Origin: Emiliania huxleyi CCMP1516
Lineage: Eukaryota
DNA length: 64,000 nucleotides
Assembly (NCBI RefSeq): GCF_000372725.1
Contig: NW_005201403.1
Location: 186,001 to 250,000, forward strand
Direction of reading: 5' to 3'
Positions 1 through 12,243 of the stretch are shown here, piece after piece. Every line of letters starts with the position of its first letter. Position 1 is the first letter of the stretch. Position numbers and translations under genes: made by a program. The notes under the pieces are model-generated. The model searched no databases. It was not told the origin of the DNA and worked only from the letters and a program-made list of their open reading frames with translations.

Positions 1-783
1 GGTCCTTGCGCGAGGGGAGCTCGATGGACTCGAGGGGCCAGGATACGCCGCGAGGAGGACGGAGTTGCGCCGAAAGGCGAAAGAAGCCGCGAGAACAAGG
101 GACCGGCAGGCGGCGGCGTCGCAGGACGAGGCAGAAGAGAACGACGCGACAGAGGAGGAAGTGACAAGGGAGAGAACGACGAGAGTGGGACGACCGCGAG
201 GTGGCATGAAGGTTGCAGCGAGAATCGGCGAGAGACTGCGAAGAGAGATAGGAAGAGGCAGACTCCCTAGGGTGGGCGACGGCTAGCGCACCACACACCT
301 CTCCTTAAAATCCCTGTGTGGTGGCGGCGTGCCGTCCTCCCATCCCTCCCTTGGGTTGTCTGTTTTCTTTCTTTCTTTCTTTACTGGGCACGGGACTGGC
401 TCGCACTGGCACTAACACAGGTACACCACGGGAGCCGCCTAAGCGACTCCTGCGAGGGCGGCGAGGCACTTAGCTCCGTGCACCCGCCCACCCCCGCCAC
501 AGGCAAGCTCATTCACAACCTGCTCTGCGATTGCCGTGTGAAGAACGACACTGAGATACGCTGCTTCTGCAGCCCCAGCCAATTCTTAGTGGTCCAAGAA
601 GAAGAAATGCTGTGCGCGGAAAACGGTGGCATAACGGCGTGAGCCTTGGCCGCCTCTGTCAGTGTGCCCGTGATAGTGAGAGACTGCCAGTGAGAAGCCG
701 GAGGAAGGTCGCTAGTCGAGAGAGATCGCCAGTGGAGTAGGGAGTCCACCGTGCTGCGAGCCTGTCGCTGACAACCCTTGTCG

Positions 784-1219
784 TTGGCCTGTACGAGGTT
801 TTCCGGAAAACAAAAAGGAAAACAGAGGGTCCCCAGCACTTTGCGTTGCCGGAAATTTCCAGGGAAAACAGAGGGTGTTTGGTGCTCCATTCTGGAAACT
901 CGCGAGTTTCCCTGAGTCTGAGAGCTGGTCTGGGGCAAAATCTGAGGCAAAATTGAGGAATCGACAAAATACCCAGGCGGTCGCAGGGTAATTTCCAGGT
1001 CTACACGGGTTCTCCGCAAAATTCCCGGCATTTTGACGATTTGGCCTAAAATTTGGCTGATTTTGGGCCCAAACCAGCCTCAGACTCGGCTCAGAGCCAA
1101 AAATTTGACGATTTCCACGGAGTTTTCTCGGGAAAATAGAGAGGAAAAGAGAGGGTGCTGTAGAGAAAAAAGGAAAGGAAAACAGACGGGGTGCGAGAGG
1201 AAAACCTCGTACAGCCTAA
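784..1219. mobile_element. MITE (non-autonomous DNA transposon, hAT-like) with 21-bp TIRs and 8-bp TSD
   Basis: The left end TTGGCCTGTACGAGGTTTTCC (784-804) matches the reverse complement of the right end, TTAGGCTGTACGAGGTTTTCC (1199-1219). An identical CCTTGTCG flanks both sides (776-783, 1220-1227). Partial copies lie at 3627-3707 and 43593-43710. Confidence 0.9.
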
Positions 1220-1351
1220 CCTTGTCGGGAGCAGGAGAACTAGGAGAGCGCAACCAGTAGGAGGCCCGCGCCTGCCCCCGGTGCCGCCGGGTGCAACCTG
1301 TCCTATACGAGAGGGGGGGGATTCCTGGAACCCTGTCGTGTGGGTGAACCC

Positions 1352-1579
1352 TCAGCCCCCCTCCGTGTGACCGTGTCGCGATGCGCTCCAAGAGAAGGAG
1401 AAAGGGTTTCTAAAATCTTTCCCGCTCCCGTTCCTTCCCCTGTGTCCCTGATCGTCCTTACAAGATCTCCTGCCTGCTCGTGTCCTTCTCCCACCCCTCG
1501 TTTGGTGAATACTTGCGGTAGACCTACATTTCAGACCCCCGTATCCGCAAGGAGCCTGAACCCACTCCGCAGCGGACAT
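1352..1579 (-). CDS. Possible array cassette 6 (75 aa)
   Basis: The ATG follows a partial repeat CTAAGTTCTAAATAAGCAT-ATG. No recognisable motif. Confidence 0.25.
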   Translation of the reverse strand: MSAAEWVQAPCGYGGLKCRSTASIHQTRGGRRTRAGRRSCKDDQGHRGRNGSGKDFRNPFSFSWSASRHGHTEGG

Positions 1580-1583
1580 ATGC

Positions 1584-1706
1584 TTATTTAGAACTTAGCA
1601 ACTTCCGCAGTGGAAACATCAGCCTCATAATCAAACCTCTCACTGCGGCTTGTATCTTAGTGTTCGCGGTCAAAAACGATCTGAGCAAGTCCCGAGGTGC
1701 ATCCAT
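1584..1706 (-). CDS. Array cassette 5: 40-aa IQ-motif peptide, related to cassette 1 (below the ORF-track cutoff)
   Basis: Hand translation: MDAPRDLLRSFLTANTKIQAAVRGLIMRLMFPLRKLLSSK*. The ATG is in repeat 1704-1730. Confidence 0.6.
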   Translation of the reverse strand: MDAPRDLLRSFLTANTKIQAAVRGLIMRLMFPLRKLLSSK

Positions 1707-1757
1707 GTGTGACACTGCCCTTAGAACATTTCTTTTTCAATCTTGATGCGTGATCTG

Positions 1758-1997
1758 TCAGAACATGCCATGGCGCCGCTTCCTTACGGTCTGCGACCTA
1801 ATGCCCAAGTCCTCTATTGCTGCTACTTGCATCATCTTGTTAATGTTGCGTCGAGCCAATGCTAACCACCTCCTTAGGCGTTTGATCACGGAGAAATACA
1901 AGCCAGTGGCCGCCCGCACCCCGCCTCCCGCAGAGAGCCCCGTCGTCACCAACTCGTTGCCCATGTATCCGACACCAGAGATCTCAACGGGGCGCAT
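1758..1997 (-). CDS. Array cassette 4: 79-aa basic micro-protein
   Basis: The ATG is in repeat 1995-2022 and the stop TGA lies inside degenerate repeat 1745-1766. It has a basic amphipathic segment IKRLRRWLALARRN. Confidence 0.55.
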   Translation of the reverse strand: MRPVEISGVGYMGNELVTTGLSAGGGVRAATGLYFSVIKRLRRWLALARRNINKMMQVAAIEDLGIRSQTVRKRRHGMF

Positions 1998-2045
1998 GCG
2001 TGACACTGCAGTCAGAACTTAGCGCGGACCCACCAATTCCATCAC

Positions 2046-2249
2046 TTAACCTGCGGCCATGGCCCCACCGAGTTTGAGTTTGTATAGCATCCACAACTTC
2101 TCCAGTCCGGTGACGTGGAACATCTGGTCAAAGGACCACAGTAACTTATAAAACAGTCGATGCATCTGCCAGTAGATCCGTGCGGTCAAGGCCTCCTGCT
2201 GTCTGAACCTCGCCTGATCTTCCTCTGTCCATCCCCAGACCAGATCCAT
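2046..2249 (-). CDS. Array cassette 3: 67-aa micro-protein, paralogue of cassette 2
   Basis: The ATG is in repeat 2247-2274. Sequence WTEEDQARFRQQ...HVTGLEKLWMLYKLKLGG. Confidence 0.65.
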   Translation of the reverse strand: MDLVWGWTEEDQARFRQQEALTARIYWQMHRLFYKLLWSFDQMFHVTGLEKLWMLYKLKLGGAMAAG

Positions 2250-2270
2250 GCGTGACACTACAATCAGAAC

Positions 2271-2492
2271 TTAGCCCAAGCCAGCAGCACCGAGTTTGAG
2301 TTTGTAGAGCGTCATAAATCGCCTCAGTCCGGTCGCGTGGGCTATCACATGCCAAGCGTGCAGGAAGTCCCAGTAGAGTTCCAGCAATCGCCACTTGATC
2401 TGTACGAAGAGGGGCTGCTGCTGTCTCCACTCCGCCTCATCGGCCTCTGTCCATCTGTTTCGCTCCCAGAACTCATCCAACTCACCATTCAT
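2271..2492 (-). CDS. Array cassette 2: 73-aa Trp-rich micro-protein, paralogue of cassette 3
   Basis: The ATG is in repeat 2490-2517 and the stop TAA lies inside repeat 2247-2274. Sequence WTEADEAEWRQQ...HATGLRRFMTLYKLKLGA. Confidence 0.65.
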   Translation of the reverse strand: MNGELDEFWERNRWTEADEAEWRQQQPLFVQIKWRLLELYWDFLHAWHVIAHATGLRRFMTLYKLKLGAAGLG

Positions 2493-2512
2493 GCGTGACA
2501 CTGCAATTAGAA

Positions 2513-2773
2513 CTAAGTGGTCTGGAAGCCAAACTGTGCAAGTGTCTCCTTTGTAATGGGCAGACCAGCCTTCTCAGCGAGGATCACCGCCCTCCGGAAC
2601 GGCCACCATAGCCTCTGAAGCAAGCCTCTCGCTGCGGCTTGTATCGTGCGGACAGCTGCACGTACCGCCCTCTCCGGAGCTCCATAATTTGTGAATCTCG
2701 CGTCCTTCATTAAGGAGCTAACGCGTCGGTGACCGAGGTCTCTGGCACGGAGCATTTCGGGGTCCGAGTCCAT
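2513..2773 (-). CDS. Array cassette 1: 86-aa IQ-motif micro-protein
   Basis: The ATG is the last codon of repeat 2771-2798 and the stop TAG lies inside repeat 2490-2517. Contains IQAAARGLLQR (IQxxxRGxxxR). Confidence 0.65.
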   Translation of the reverse strand: MDSDPEMLRARDLGHRRVSSLMKDARFTNYGAPERAVRAAVRTIQAAARGLLQRLWWPFRRAVILAEKAGLPITKETLAQFGFQTT

Positions 2774-2931
2774 GCGTGACACTGCAATTAGAACTTAGCG
2801 TGACACGCTCCCAAACTTAGCGTGACACGCTCCGAGATCGCAATCTCCCCAGGGTTCGGCTCCAGTGTGGGTACGGGATCCCCTACCCCCAGGGAGGGGG
2901 AACCCGCACTGGACGCGCGTCTCGGCACCAT

Positions 2932-3444
2932 ATGCCTCTCACCGCGGCCAGCAAGCGGCGGGCCATCAAGGTGGCGCTCCTGGGTTTGGTTGGCCTCACA
3001 ATCGCCACGTACGCGCTCTCCGTCGAAACGCAGATGCACGAGCCCGGCTACGAGGCTGCGTGCGACATCGGCGCGGGCTTCTCCTGCACGGCAGTCTTCT
3101 CGAGCGAGTACGCGCACCCGCTCTCTCACTGGGGTCTGGTGAAGCAGGGCGACGCCCTCGATATCGGCCTAGCAGTCGCCGGCATGGCGCTCTACTCCGC
3201 TTACTTTGTCGCCGCGTGCCTGTGGAGGTTGAACCTCGTCCCGTACCGGCAGCCGCTCTTCCTGGCGGTCGCGACCGCCGGCGCGTGCTTCTCCTGCTAC
3301 CTGCTGTACGTCCTCAAGTTCATCCTTGGCGATTTTTGCATCGTGTGCACCGGCTTCCACTGCGTCAACTTTTCGATGTTTGCAGTCGCGCTGTTTGAGT
3401 TCTTCGATAGCGGCACCAGCGGGAAGGGCGGCAAGCGTGCCTGA
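2932..3444 (+). CDS. VKOR: Vitamin K epoxide reductase (VKOR) family protein
   Basis: Loop cysteines AACDIGAGFSCTAVFSSEY, about four hydrophobic segments and the redox CxxC motif FCIVC. 170 aa, intronless. Confidence 0.93.
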   Translation: MPLTAASKRRAIKVALLGLVGLTIATYALSVETQMHEPGYEAACDIGAGFSCTAVFSSEYAHPLSHWGLVKQGDALDIGLAVAGMALYSAYFVAACLWRLNLVPYRQPLFLAVATAGACFSCYLLYVLKFILGDFCIVCTGFHCVNFSMFAVALFEFFDSGTSGKGGKRA

Positions 3445-3626
3445 GGACAGTGCTGCGCCCGGGGAGGGCGCCGGTGGTGGGGCTCGACGCTCCACCGAGC
3501 TATTGCTCTGTGACGGCCTGTGTGTGGGCTTTCGCTTGCTTCTCCACGGGGGGATGTACTGCAGAGTGGATCTTGTTGCGTCGTGGTGCTCTAACCGCCT
3601 CTATTTATCGCCACCCTCCGCACCGG

Positions 3627-3707
3627 AAATTTGATTGAAATTTCCACGGATATCCGGAAACTAGAGAGGACACGAGAGGGTGCTGTAGGGAAGAAAAGAA
3701 ACGAAAC
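3627..3707 (+). mobile_element. Internal fragment of the 784-1219 MITE family
   Basis: TTTCCACGGA...TAGAGAGGA.A.GAGAGGGTGCTGTAG matches 1112-1163. Confidence 0.65.
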
Positions 3708-3792
3708 TAGGCGGGTTGGCGCCGAGGTTACATGTATACCCTAGAGCGCGCGCGACGGGCAGAATCTCTCGGTCTCGCGCCGTCCGGCGAGC

Positions 3793-5535
3793 CTACCTAA
3801 ACGGGATGGGGCCAGGAAGGTGCTGCACAGGACGCCGGTGGCAGTGGCGCACCAACCGCATCACGGCGGCTGCACGCATCGCCCCGGATGGCCCCGAGGC
3901 CACCTGCGCTCGCGCCGCTTGCACGGTCGCGGAAAGCACCTGGCAAGCTGTGTCGGCCTCCTCCTCCTCCTCATCGCTGCTCTGTGCCATTTGCCGCACC
4001 GCAGCAAGCTTGTGCCGAGCGGGAGGAGGCGGAGGAGGCGGAGGAGGCGGCGGGCTCTCCGAAGCGTTCGCCTTCGCCGGCGGCTTCCCCGCCGCCGCCC
4101 CCCGCCGCCTGGTGGCAAGCGGCCGGCCCTCCTCTGAGTCGGAGCCGGCGCCTCCCTCTGCGCCGCCCGCCCCTCCCTCGCCCCTCCCTCCCTCGCCAGC
4201 CTGCTGCGGGTCGCCTCGCGCGCGCTTCTTTGCGCGTGCGGCGAGGGGCCGCCCCTCCTCCTCGTCCGAGTCCGGCGCCGCCTCTTGGCTCGCCTCGCGG
4301 CCGGTCGAGAAGCCAGCAGCCGGAGCGGCGGGCGGAGCAGGCGGAGCAGGTGTCGCGGGCGGAGCGGGCGGAGCGGGCGGAGCGGCCGGTCGGGGGGTTG
4401 CGGTCTTCGCCGCGGGCGGGGCGGCGGCGGCGCTGCGCGGCGAGCCGGCTTGCAGGAGGAGGCGCGCCGCCGCCGCCTCCCTCCTGGCGAGGGCGAGCAC
4501 CTCGCACTTGCGATGCACGCAGCCCTTCCGCTGCTCGATCGCACTCTTCGTCCCTCGGCAGGAGGCGCACACGCCGCAGCCGGGAGAGACGCAGCCCGCG
4601 CACTCGCCACATCTTCTGCGCGGGGCCTGCCTGCGGGCCTGGCGAGTCGGCTGGGCTGCGCCATGGAGCGGCAGAGAGGGCGGCGGCCCAGACGGCGTCG
4701 GCCCTGGCGAGGCGGCGGGCGGCGGCGGCTTCGGCTGCGGCCTCGGCGGTGCTTGCGGTGGCGGGCGCGGTGAGGGGGCCGGGAGCGACCGCTCGGCTGG
4801 CCGCGACGCGACCGACGGTTGGCGAGGAGGCGGCGGCGGCGGCGGTGGCGGCGCGGCGGTCGTCTCGTCTCTCCGCACGAGGATGAGCCGGTCGAGCCAG
4901 GCCCTGCGCTTGCGCAGCGCCCCCGGCGGCAGCGAGAGGGCCACCTCCAGCTCCGCCCGCAGCGCCCGCGCCGTCAGCGACGCAAAGTCGCTCGACGGCG
5001 TGATCCGCGATCGCAGCCACCCGGCAGCCTTCGCCTCGGGCAGCCGGGCGGCGAGGTCGGCGCCGTTTGATCCGGTGGTCCGCCAGCGCACGGAGGCGAG
5101 TGTTGCGCGCGCGCGCGCGGCGGATGCCCGGTCGGTGCCCTTGAGAGCGAGCAGGGTCGGCAGGTCGAGCCGTCGCATCAGCTGCAGCGACGCCTCCTCG
5201 CAGAGCGTCTGCCACGGGCACAGCCGGCGACGGAAGGCTGCCACTGCCGCGTCCGCACGAACGGCAGCCGCCGCCCGCTCTGCACCAGCCCGCCGCGCCG
5301 CATCGGGGTGACGCTCCGCCGAGCGCTCGTGCAGCGTTTCTTGGCCCGGTCCGCTCGGTGTCAGGTGCGGGACGGGCTCGCGGTGGCACTCGCGGACGAA
5401 CCGCATGATGGGCTCGGCTGCAGGGCCAGGAGGAGACACGAATTTGCTCGGCGGCAGCGAGGCGCGCGCCTCAAGAGGCGTGAAGCGATCGAGGATCGAG
5501 AGGAGGGGGTCATCGCGTGGCGTGGTGGGTCCCAT
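3793..5535 (-). CDS. Putative chromatin protein with DEK-C-like and zf-CXXC domains
   Basis: RRCGECAGCVSPGCGVCASC...KGCVHRKC at about 4504-4620 is a zf-CXXC pattern. DFASLTARALRAELEVALSLPPGALRKRRAWLDRLI is DEK C-terminal-like. Pro-rich and acidic linkers. The ends may involve introns. Confidence 0.7.
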   Translation of the reverse strand: MGPTTPRDDPLLSILDRFTPLEARASLPPSKFVSPPGPAAEPIMRFVRECHREPVPHLTPSGPGQETLHERSAERHPDAARRAGAERAAAAVRADAAVAAFRRRLCPWQTLCEEASLQLMRRLDLPTLLALKGTDRASAARARATLASVRWRTTGSNGADLAARLPEAKAAGWLRSRITPSSDFASLTARALRAELEVALSLPPGALRKRRAWLDRLILVRRDETTAAPPPPPPPPPRQPSVASRPAERSLPAPSPRPPPQAPPRPQPKPPPPAASPGPTPSGPPPSLPLHGAAQPTRQARRQAPRRRCGECAGCVSPGCGVCASCRGTKSAIEQRKGCVHRKCEVLALARREAAAARLLLQAGSPRSAAAAPPAAKTATPRPAAPPAPPAPPATPAPPAPPAAPAAGFSTGREASQEAAPDSDEEEGRPLAARAKKRARGDPQQAGEGGRGEGGAGGAEGGAGSDSEEGRPLATRRRGAAAGKPPAKANASESPPPPPPPPPPPARHKLAAVRQMAQSSDEEEEEADTACQVLSATVQAARAQVASGPSGAMRAAAVMRLVRHCHRRPVQHLPGPIPFR

Positions 5536-5625
5536 ATCGTTGCCCCTCTTCGCCGATCATGGCGCGAAATGTCGTGTTTTTTTTGAGGTTAGCCTTCGAT
5601 GTGATGAAACAAACGCAACGCGGAA

Positions 5626-6375
5626 ATGGCATATCGCTCTCGGGCCCACAGACATCCCGCACACCCGCCGCCCCCGCGCGCGCCCCACCCCGGCCGGGAG
5701 AAAGGGGAGTGCGACAGTTTGGGGCGGAAAGTCGAGTATTTCGCACTCCATGTGCGAGAACGCAGAGAGAAATGAAAGCCGTCCGGCCCCCAAGTCCGGC
5801 TCACGCGCCCCGAGCTCACCGTCTACCGCACTGAACACTTTCGCCCCCTCGCTCCCAACCCATCCACCTCGCCTCGGGCCGCGCCGCGCGATCTCGGGCG
5901 ATCTCGCGCTATCTCGGGCGATCTCGGGGCCGCGCCGCGCTATCTCGGGCGATCTCGGAGCGTCGCTCGCGCGGCGGCACACCTGCTCAAAAAAGGAAGG
6001 GCCCGGTTGGAGCCACGGGGCTCACGTGCTCGCTCGGTGCGCCGCCTCACTCTGCGCCATTTTTGAGGCGTTGGCGAGGGCCGGTGAGGCGGCGCCCCGC
6101 GCGGCGCGTTCATCGCCCTCCACGCCGACCCCTGCGCGCACCGCTCATCTTGGCCCTCCTGGGGTTACTCTCGCGCTCGCGCAGGACCCGGGGGACTCCC
6201 TTCCCCCCACCTCCGACGGGTTAGGTCGGTTCTGCGCCCCTTGGCGCCTGTGCATGTCCCGCGTGCCCGCTTTTTTTGAGCTGCCGGGTAGCCTTCGAGT
6301 TAGGAAACAAAGCAAGGACACGTATGGCATATCGCTCTCGGGCCCACAGACATCCCGCACACCCGCCGCCCCCGC
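5626..6375 (+). repeat. Pair of identical 52-bp direct repeats (5626-5677, 6324-6375) with similar upstream flanks
   Basis: ATGGCATATCGCTCTCGGGCCCACAGACATCCCGCACACCCGCCGCCCCCGC occurs twice, each preceded by TTTTTTGAG...TAGCCTTCGA...GAAACAAA. Confidence 0.85.
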
Positions 6376-7208
6376 TTTTTCCACGCCCCCGCCTCCCCCG
6401 GGGGCGCGGTGAACACGCTTTGCTGCGAAAAGGCGCTGCATGCAGTGGTGGTGGTGCGTGCCCGATTACTCCCTCCAGGCACGAAGGGGGGGCGGTGCAG
6501 GTGACTCGTCCGTCAAGGGGCCGAGCTAGGGAGCGCGCTACGCATTGTGGAGAGAGAGACAGAGAGAGAGATTATCATTGTTGTACGACTGTATCGAATT
6601 GTGGTAAGTTGTACAGGTATATATTGTTGGCAAGTCAGGAGCTCAGGACACAGACCTCACTCACATAAACGCACAACCCCGGTAGATTTTCTTTTCTCTC
6701 TAGTTGTGTGCAGATCGTACATATTGTTTGCGCCCGTTATGACGGCTTTTTAGTTACGTGGCGGGTTATAGCGGATCAGGTTTCCGTTTTACCGCGGCGG
6801 ATCACCCACTTCTGAGGTGCGGACCCATCGACCCAAGGAGACACGGCCGACACAAAAATATTTGTGAATTGGAAATAACATTGCAATATATGGCCGCAAT
6901 GCGCAATCTCGGGCTCGAGCTCTTCGCCCGATGCATGTGTATATGCTGCCTCGCGCCTCCGCGTCTCGCGCCTCCGCGCCCCATCTGACCAGCAATCTCA
7001 CTCTCTCCAGCCACAGTCGGCCCCGCGGCTCCGATCCGCCCGTCCCCGCCGCCCGCACCCCAGACAACATCACTCGGCCCCTCTCTGAGACAGCACACAA
7101 TCGCACGCACGTTGATCATCTGTCGAGACTCGAGACTGGGCGCGACACGCGCCCTCCGGCGCCACGCCGACGCCGAGCCGAGGCAGAGCCGAGGCAGAGC
7201 CGTCGGCA

Positions 7209-11796
<4,588 letters not shown>

Positions 11797-12243
11797 TCGT
11801 GTTAATACGTGAAGTTGTACGGCACACGTCGATACGACCAGCAGCTGGTAAGGCCGCCTCGGGTCGGCCAAGGGCGTCGGGCCGCCAGCACAAAAAGTAA
11901 TTCCAAGGCGACCGACCCAAACGCTATAAGAGCAAATGCGTTAGTTTTCTGTTTTCTTTTTTTCATATGTTGCGTTCTTTCTTTCTTTCTACCCGCCTTG
12001 ACTTCTTTTTCCGTCGCGTGTGTATACTGTCTGAGAGAGAGAACGTGTCGGTACTAACACCAAAAAACAAACACTCTCTCTCTCTCTCTCTCTCCAAAAA
12101 ACTACTATGTCTTGCAGTGAAAAGTAATCCGAGCCGGCCCGCGGCCGCAATCTCAACGTTTCTAAACAGCACGTAGCCCGCAAGGCTCGAGCCGCAAGGT
12201 CACGCTACGCGCGTACGGGCAGCGCCTGCGCAGCAATGCCTCT

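Follow-up and report, generated by a model that had tools for sequence, protein, structure and literature searches.

The question raised by this locus of Emiliania huxleyi CCMP1516 is whether two very short stretches resembling the calmodulin-binding IQ motif are what they appear to be, and what kind of DNA carries them. Both lie in the window, by which is meant the whole stretch of 64,000 nucleotides (nt) analysed here (contig NW_005201403.1, positions 186,001 to 250,000), and an initial annotation of this DNA had proposed that the tiny peptides encoding them could act as calmodulin decoys or effectors. The reading favoured here, with middling confidence, is that the two stretches sit in paralogous small open reading frames (ORFs) of a mobile element and belong to a conserved miniprotein family whose IQ-type core is predicted to bind calmodulin or another EF-hand protein. 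The motif itself is known; the miniprotein family bearing it is new and lacks annotation, and the mobile element that carries the family is uncharacterised.

The first stretch, IQAAARGLLQR, occupies 2612-2644 of the minus strand inside the ORF called c1 (I44 to R54, read from 2644 to 2612), and the second, IQAAVRGLIMR, occupies 1623-1655 of the same strand inside c5 (I18 to R28, read from 1655 to 1623); the initial annotation had given coordinates, strand and motif text correctly for both. Each carries the full 14-residue consensus [FILV]Qxxx[RK]Gxxx[RK]xx[FILVWY], as IQAAARGLLQRLWW in c1 and as IQAAVRGLIMRLMF in c5. The DNA stretch that the two sites had been said to share is real: positions 1604-1656 and 2593-2645 align over 53 nt with 75% identity, and the final 21 nt differ by one base. 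c1 and c5 are paralogues, c1 being of a different subtype. In tblastn comparisons, residues 1-16 of the family sequence P0006 match the start of c5 (1706-1659, 94% identity), and residues 45-72 of a 72-amino-acid (aa) protein from the related metagenome locus L004 match its end (1670-1587, 79% identity). Everything between the N-terminal block of the family and its C-terminal IQ block is missing from c5 and the loss is in frame; c5 is an internally deleted version of the 72-aa gene found on longer elements.

The family to which both ORFs belong consists of metagenome relatives of 61-104 aa, none of which bears a name, and the only conserved core is A-x-T-x-[IL]-Q-A-A-x-R-x4-[RK]-x3-P-x-R. An alignment of 12 sequences (c1 numbering) has four invariant columns, A40, Q45, A46 and R49; T42, A47, P58 and R60 are kept at 90% or more, and I or L stands at position 44 in all 12 sequences, R or K at position 54 in 11. 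The members are only 19-56% identical to c1. The initial annotation had counted loss of the motif from homologous cassettes among the things that would refute its idea, and the motif is conserved across these 12 sequences. Homologues of c5 and c1 are also encoded on related elements, as a 72-aa ORF in the metagenome loci L003 and L004 and a 76-aa ORF in L002. Five copies can be compared as DNA; they differ by third-base synonymous changes at I, G, L and P codons, and the insertions and deletions among them are in frame. Additionally, an N-terminal block, DLLRSFL, is conserved at the protein level, and the N-terminal part of the 72-aa protein is identical at 18 residues to a transcriptome-derived ORF (P0002) that is without the IQ part, a weak hint that a related copy may be transcribed.

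The assignment of the core to the IQ type is well supported at the level of the family, as judged from sequence comparison, each single copy being mostly below the threshold of the Pfam model. A profile built from five members and searched against 1.84 billion proteins gave 100 matches at E<=1e-3; the strongest of those outside the family are long proteins, aligned in 7-25 stretches at the motif positions, and the Pfam IQ motif was present in all ten long matches tested (1e-46 to 1e-135). A profile search of the PDB returned IQ segments only, namely those of Sp17 (E 0.016), of radial spoke protein 23 (RSP23) and of a calmodulin-neuromodulin IQ fusion (E 0.64). As a lead only, the atlas places c1 nearest to clusters of small IQ proteins (score 0.88). 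An AlphaFold2 model of c1 made with the family alignment predicts helices at residues 5-28, 32-68 and 75-80 and no globular fold (predicted template modelling score 0.31), and it places the motif within the best-predicted helix, residues 32-68, where the predicted local distance difference test (pLDDT) value is 76-81.

The surrounding DNA behaves as an insertion-polymorphic mobile element, a point absent from the initial annotation. Its boundaries were set by alignment with L001, L003 and L004 (Table 1), and its G+C content is 54.8% against 65.4% in the remaining window; at third codon positions the values are 54-70% for the small ORFs and 86% for the neighbouring vitamin K epoxide reductase (VKOR) family gene. 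Contigs from public sequencing runs of strains of the same organism were compared over window positions 1300-3600. In strains X2 and X11, position 1570 is joined to 2929 with 42 other letters between and the entire array is absent; the empty-site contig of X2, of 1,286 nt, extends over the VKOR gene. X1, the likely source strain, has both the filled form (an identical contig of 1,220 nt, depth 10.1) and a joint from 1569 to 2929 (depth 6.4), which is consistent with heterozygosity for the insertion. Loose ends of other copies in X1 and X7 also run into CATATG, the hexamer found at both ends of the element here.

The element is also multi-copy, and its content varies. The summed depth of the leader in front of the first ORF (2763-2916) is 151-1129, against 10-57 for single-copy neighbours, which puts the copy number of the leader in the tens per genome. 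Other strains have alternative joints, always at the conserved heads that precede the ORFs: 1715 to 2044 (c4 dropped), 2248 to 2770 (c1 and c2 dropped), 1727 to 2770 (leader plus c5) and 2517 back to 1602. These differing joints show that cassette content is variable, with the qualification that the rejoined contigs may stem from copies elsewhere in those genomes and not from this locus. When the strain contigs were compared with L004, a contig of 2,639 nt in X1 was found to carry the large ORF of that locus at about 90% identity, and depth over L004 declines from the leader to a zinc-finger gene and further to the large ORF; it follows that short derivatives, of the kind seen in the window, make up the majority of copies.

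The array itself comprises five minus-strand ORFs, c1 to c5, each directly after a conserved head of 29-31 nt, GCTAAGTTCTRAYTGYAGTGTCACGCATG; the five copies of the head are spaced by 243-291 nt and occur nowhere else in the window. Of 19 regions upstream of small ORFs, 18 contain the pentamer TCT[AG]A 12-25 nt ahead of the start codon (7 of 8 when homologous heads are grouped); what comes next is TTGCAGTGTCACGC in some and an A-rich GAAA run in the others. The initial annotation had suggested that a basic amphipathic helix in c4 might do something similar to the IQ peptides, an idea left unsupported here: c4 has no significant Pfam match (best E 0.24) and none in the PHROGs or in loci L001-L004.

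A scan of marine metagenome contigs with the head pattern returned four related loci, L001-L004. In L001, L003 and L004 homology to the window starts two bases after CATATG; upstream of this hexamer the L001 and L003 flanks are related neither to the window nor to one another, the L004 contig starts within CATATG and that of L002 inside the repeats. No two loci have the same first ORF after the leader (119, 62, 105 and 110 aa). Beyond it, L002 and L004 contain more small ORFs, genes for a zinc-finger protein of 121 aa and a glycine-rich one of 78 aa, and a convergent large ORF; on these longer elements the IQ gene of 72-76 aa adjoins the zinc-finger gene. The zinc-finger protein matches the PHROG endonuclease VII family (9.8e-11) and HNH (4.4e-9). 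The large ORF, of at least 437 aa, lies on the plus strand at 2-1315 in L004 and at 1-615 in L002, and the two copies are 38% identical. That of L004 has no match in Pfam, the PHROGs or the PDB and no relatives among 4,556 candidates; its nearest atlas clusters are labelled viral or capsid at a score of 0.81, below the useful level, and its AlphaFold2 model has a pLDDT of 31. In a collection of viral contigs there were no relatives of the head, the large ORF, the zinc-finger gene, the IQ family or the terminal palindrome, and for the second head type each of the 84 loci listed, out of 119, held a single match, which is the chance level.

Several points weigh against the reading of c1 and c5 as calmodulin-binding miniproteins of a mobile element. 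The Pfam scan proposed in the initial annotation gives 12.0 bits for c1 and 13.3 bits for c5 under the IQ model PF00612, whose gathering cut-off is 20.3 bits. Across the family 11 of the 12 members fall below it (the others at 16.7-19.5 bits or with no match at E<=0.01), and P0070, with 21.0 bits, alone exceeds it. The glycine of IQxxxRG, at position 50, is G in six of the 12 sequences, M in four and R in two. No transposase, integrase, capsid or replication gene was recognised in the element or in the L001-L004 fragments. The database members of the family are predicted ORFs, and the fact that they are always open is partly a matter of ascertainment. Finally, c5, in which the central 30-60 residues present in its relatives are missing, may be a remnant. 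What the initial annotation called tiny peptides are indeed very small stand-alone ORFs, and of its canonical IQ motif the IQ type, the full consensus and the true IQ proteins found by the family profile stand; both copies are nevertheless under the Pfam cut-off, and c5 reads as an internally deleted remnant and not as a designed peptide.

The low scores and the variable glycine would also suit an explanation in which the miniproteins are made and their helix binds some other partner, such as another protein of the element, a myosin-type light chain, membranes or nucleic acid, the likeness to IQ arising from a basic amphipathic helix of a common kind. The family-specific and nearly invariant P58 and R60 lie outside the IQ consensus, and nothing beyond the motif resembles known calmodulin regulators. 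Set against this are the best profile matches outside the family, all of them true multi-IQ proteins, in whose repeats the preceding A-A-T-K context is typical too, and the 14-residue consensus that c1 and c5 follow in full. Binding to another partner is possible, though on the whole unlikely.

It might instead be asked whether the ORFs are translated at all, the conserved stretch being a signal in DNA or RNA close to where a gene block ends and the IQ reading a by-product. All five DNA copies have the same codons for Q-A-A and R, with CAAGCCGCA and AGA unchanged throughout, and some constraint at the DNA level may act on these codons. Moreover, it is the next head motif, GCTAAGTTCTAA, that encodes the C-terminal LLSSK of c5 and of the L003/L004 gene, and a collection of 15 billion proteins contains none of c1, c2 and c4 in their exact sequence. 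Such a signal would have to accommodate members as divergent as those described above, in which the motif residues are nonetheless correctly spaced with variable positions between them; the synonymous third-base changes, the in-frame indels, the preservation of DLLRSFL as protein and the 18 residues shared with the transcriptome-derived ORF likewise argue for coding sequence, so that this explanation appears improbable. Coincidence, in which GC-rich DNA with many Arg, Gly and Ala codons would have matched a short pattern twice independently, is refuted by the homology of the two sites over 53 nt and their membership in one protein family with relatives elsewhere, and is almost certainly wrong, even though the motif count by itself is not beyond chance: the 11-residue pattern [FILV]Qxxx[RK]Gxxx[RK] has two matches in the six frames of the window, at these c1 and c5 sites only, whereas 100 windows simulated with a first-order Markov model had 1.58 matches on average, and 50 of the 100 had two or more. 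The c1 and c5 copies are judged non-random because they are homologous, lie in open frames of one element and keep the motif in relatives.

The following course of events can be proposed. The heads would act as gene-start, promoter-like signals and also as recombination joints at which cassettes are reshuffled between copies of the element; the miniproteins, once produced, would hold apo-calmodulin or a calmodulin-like protein on the model of PEP-19 and neurogranin, and this holding might alter host Ca2+ signalling to the benefit of the element. As a minor alternative, the head could be a spliced-leader or splice acceptor site instead of a promoter-like signal, since it contains CTAAT...GCAG. 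No EF-hand gene was found within the window. A bolder picture, which we consider rather doubtful, is that of possibly virus-derived mobile elements with integron-like exchangeable miniprotein cassettes behind a hairpin-and-repeat terminus, one of the cassettes being a calmodulin-sequestering IQ decoy that tunes host calcium signalling.

Table 1. Coordinates, in the window, of the inserted element, its cassettes and heads, and the adjoining host gene.
Feature	Position	Strand	Description or basis
Inserted element	1583..2928	-	1,346 bp; boundary from alignment with L001, L003 and L004
CATATG at the element's 3' side (minus-strand sense)	1577..1582		sequence; hexamer repeated at the opposite end
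c5	1584..1706	-	40 aa; contains KIQAAVRGLIMRLMFPLRK; internally deleted member of the IQ miniprotein family
Head before c5	1702..1732	-	degenerate fusion of both head types (GAAAAAGAAATG + TTCTAAGGGCAGTGTCACACATG)
c4	1758..1997	-	79-aa ORF; without known relatives
Head before c4	1993..2023	-	sequence
c3	2046..2249	-	67-aa ORF; paralogue of c2
Head before c3	2245..2275	-	sequence
c2	2271..2492	-	73-aa ORF; paralogue of c3
Head before c2	2488..2518	-	sequence
c1	2513..2773	-	ATG 2773, stop 2513; 86 aa; contains TIQAAARGLLQRLWWPFRR; full-length member of the IQ miniprotein family, WWPFRRALILAE subtype
Head before c1	2769..2799	-	GCTAAGTTCTAATTGCAGTGTCACGCATG
Two 22-nt repeats, GAGCGTGTCACGCTAAGTTTGG type	2792..2833	-	each with palindrome AGCGTG-T-CACGCT; upstream of c1
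Structured terminal region, about 95 nt	2834..2928	-	alignment with related loci; contains a 20-nt near-palindrome
CATATG at the element's 5' side	2929..2934		includes the VKOR ATG (2932)
VKOR family host gene	2932..3444	+	Pfam VKOR 4.9e-22; outside the element

The leader end of the element carries repeats and a structured terminus. The 22-nt repeats number two to five in L001-L004. The terminal region, folded as single-stranded DNA, reaches -36.6 kcal/mol (z -4.0), and none of 200 shuffled sequences folds as well. The 20-nt palindrome GGGTAGGGGATCCCCTACCC (window 2860-2889) is perfect in L001 and L004 and has one or two mismatches in the window and in L003. In L002, on the reverse strand, a second block of five repeats of 22-24 nt follows the first ORF at about 278-395; this ORF is bracketed by repeat arrays on both sides and looks as if inserted into a repeat array. 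At its leader end the element stops 3 nt before the VKOR ATG, the native upstream region being displaced by 1.35 kb in the filled allele, and expression of VKOR from that allele may differ.

Known classes of inserted DNA were considered for the element and set aside. An introner or intron was rejected: only the window copy has GT...AG on the minus strand, and L001, L003 and L004 begin with AT, CT and TT. A Helitron was rejected on account of a palindrome about 60 nt from the end and the lack of TC and CTRR ends, and a cut-and-paste DNA transposon or miniature inverted-repeat transposable element (MITE) because the terminal sequences, CTTATTTAG... and ...CTCGGCAC, do not form inverted repeats. 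Positions 1400-3000 yielded none either, CATATG standing at both ends nonetheless. Rfam and tRNA scans of 1200-3100 and of 1-4000 gave nothing, and the phage database gave no match.

Other features lie around the insertion. Directly beside it, at 1300-1530, lies a very abundant short repeat: contig depths there add up to 1,000-21,000 in each of the four strains, where single-copy DNA shows about 10-15, and 1389-1435 exists in many length variants. A MITE-like unit at 783-1220 has inverted arms of 22 nt (91% complementary) 394 nt apart that enclose repeats of the GGAAAACAGAGGGT type, and a partial second copy of it is found at 3651-3718 (82% over 66 nt). On the minus strand, 3793-5535 is a Pro/Ala/Arg-rich ORF of 580 aa with a CXXC-type zinc-finger match of 20.1 bits, under the Pfam cut-off of 26.5; this ORF and the base composition are indications of a eukaryotic genome. 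Positions 5888-5958 consist of seven copies of the 10-nt tandem repeat GCGATCTCGG.

The element offers a tractable case for the gain, shuffling and loss of small genes in eukaryotic mobile DNA because it is insertion-polymorphic, flanked by CATATG, placed 3 nt from a host start codon and variable between strains in its cassette content. If the predicted binding is true, a protein of 60-100 residues borne by a mobile element or virus would tap the Ca2+/calmodulin system of its host in a marine eukaryote, and if it works as a decoy, it would be the first mimic of the PEP-19/neurogranin class carried by a mobile element. In the open-access literature no description was found of stand-alone IQ proteins borne by mobile elements (a keyword search, which is not proof of absence), nothing comparable among viral IQ proteins including those of virophages, and no description of this element among coccolithophore transposable elements; the repeat sequences returned unrelated primer matches only.

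Compared with the proteins of PF00612, such as those of myosin necks, Sp17 and radial spoke protein 23, the family shares the consensus and the A-A-x-K/T lead-in. It differs in having a single motif in 40-104 aa and no other domain, in scores mostly under the cut-off, in a glycine that is often Met or Arg, and in an extra conserved P-x-R placed 13-15 residues after the Q. The proteins of the PEP-19/neurogranin class are tiny, too. The likeness of the family to this class lies in tiny non-globular proteins whose sole recognisable feature is the IQ motif, and the class could serve as a model for a calmodulin buffer or decoy. It differs in being animal and neuronal, whereas the family is borne by a mobile element in a marine eukaryote and its binding is predicted only; no homology beyond the IQ motif was found in the PDB profile search, where the match to the neuromodulin fusion covered the motif only. 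PEP-19/PCP4, neurogranin and neuromodulin are small IQ-only calmodulin regulators (PMC5122967; PMC3589724; 10.1101/2024.03.21.586151).

As for the carrier, integrated polinton-like viruses are described for haptophyte genomes, and the element resembles the polinton-like and virophage-like elements of algae in being an insert of lower GC in a GC-rich host, in having copies of varying completeness and in its many small same-strand ORFs, each with a short upstream motif (10.1101/2022.07.28.501842). Unlike these, no major or minor capsid protein, ATPase, polymerase or integrase is recognised here, in fragments of only 1.1-3.2 kb. The likeness to bacterial integron arrays is one of layout only: short unrelated ORFs are separated by one repeat, and order and content vary by strain with the joints at the repeats. 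Neither an integrase, in the window element or L001-L004, nor an attI or attC-like imperfect inverted repeat, in the repeats, was found. In contrast to integrons, the host is a eukaryote and the repeat stands directly before each ATG, where it resembles a gene-start signal.

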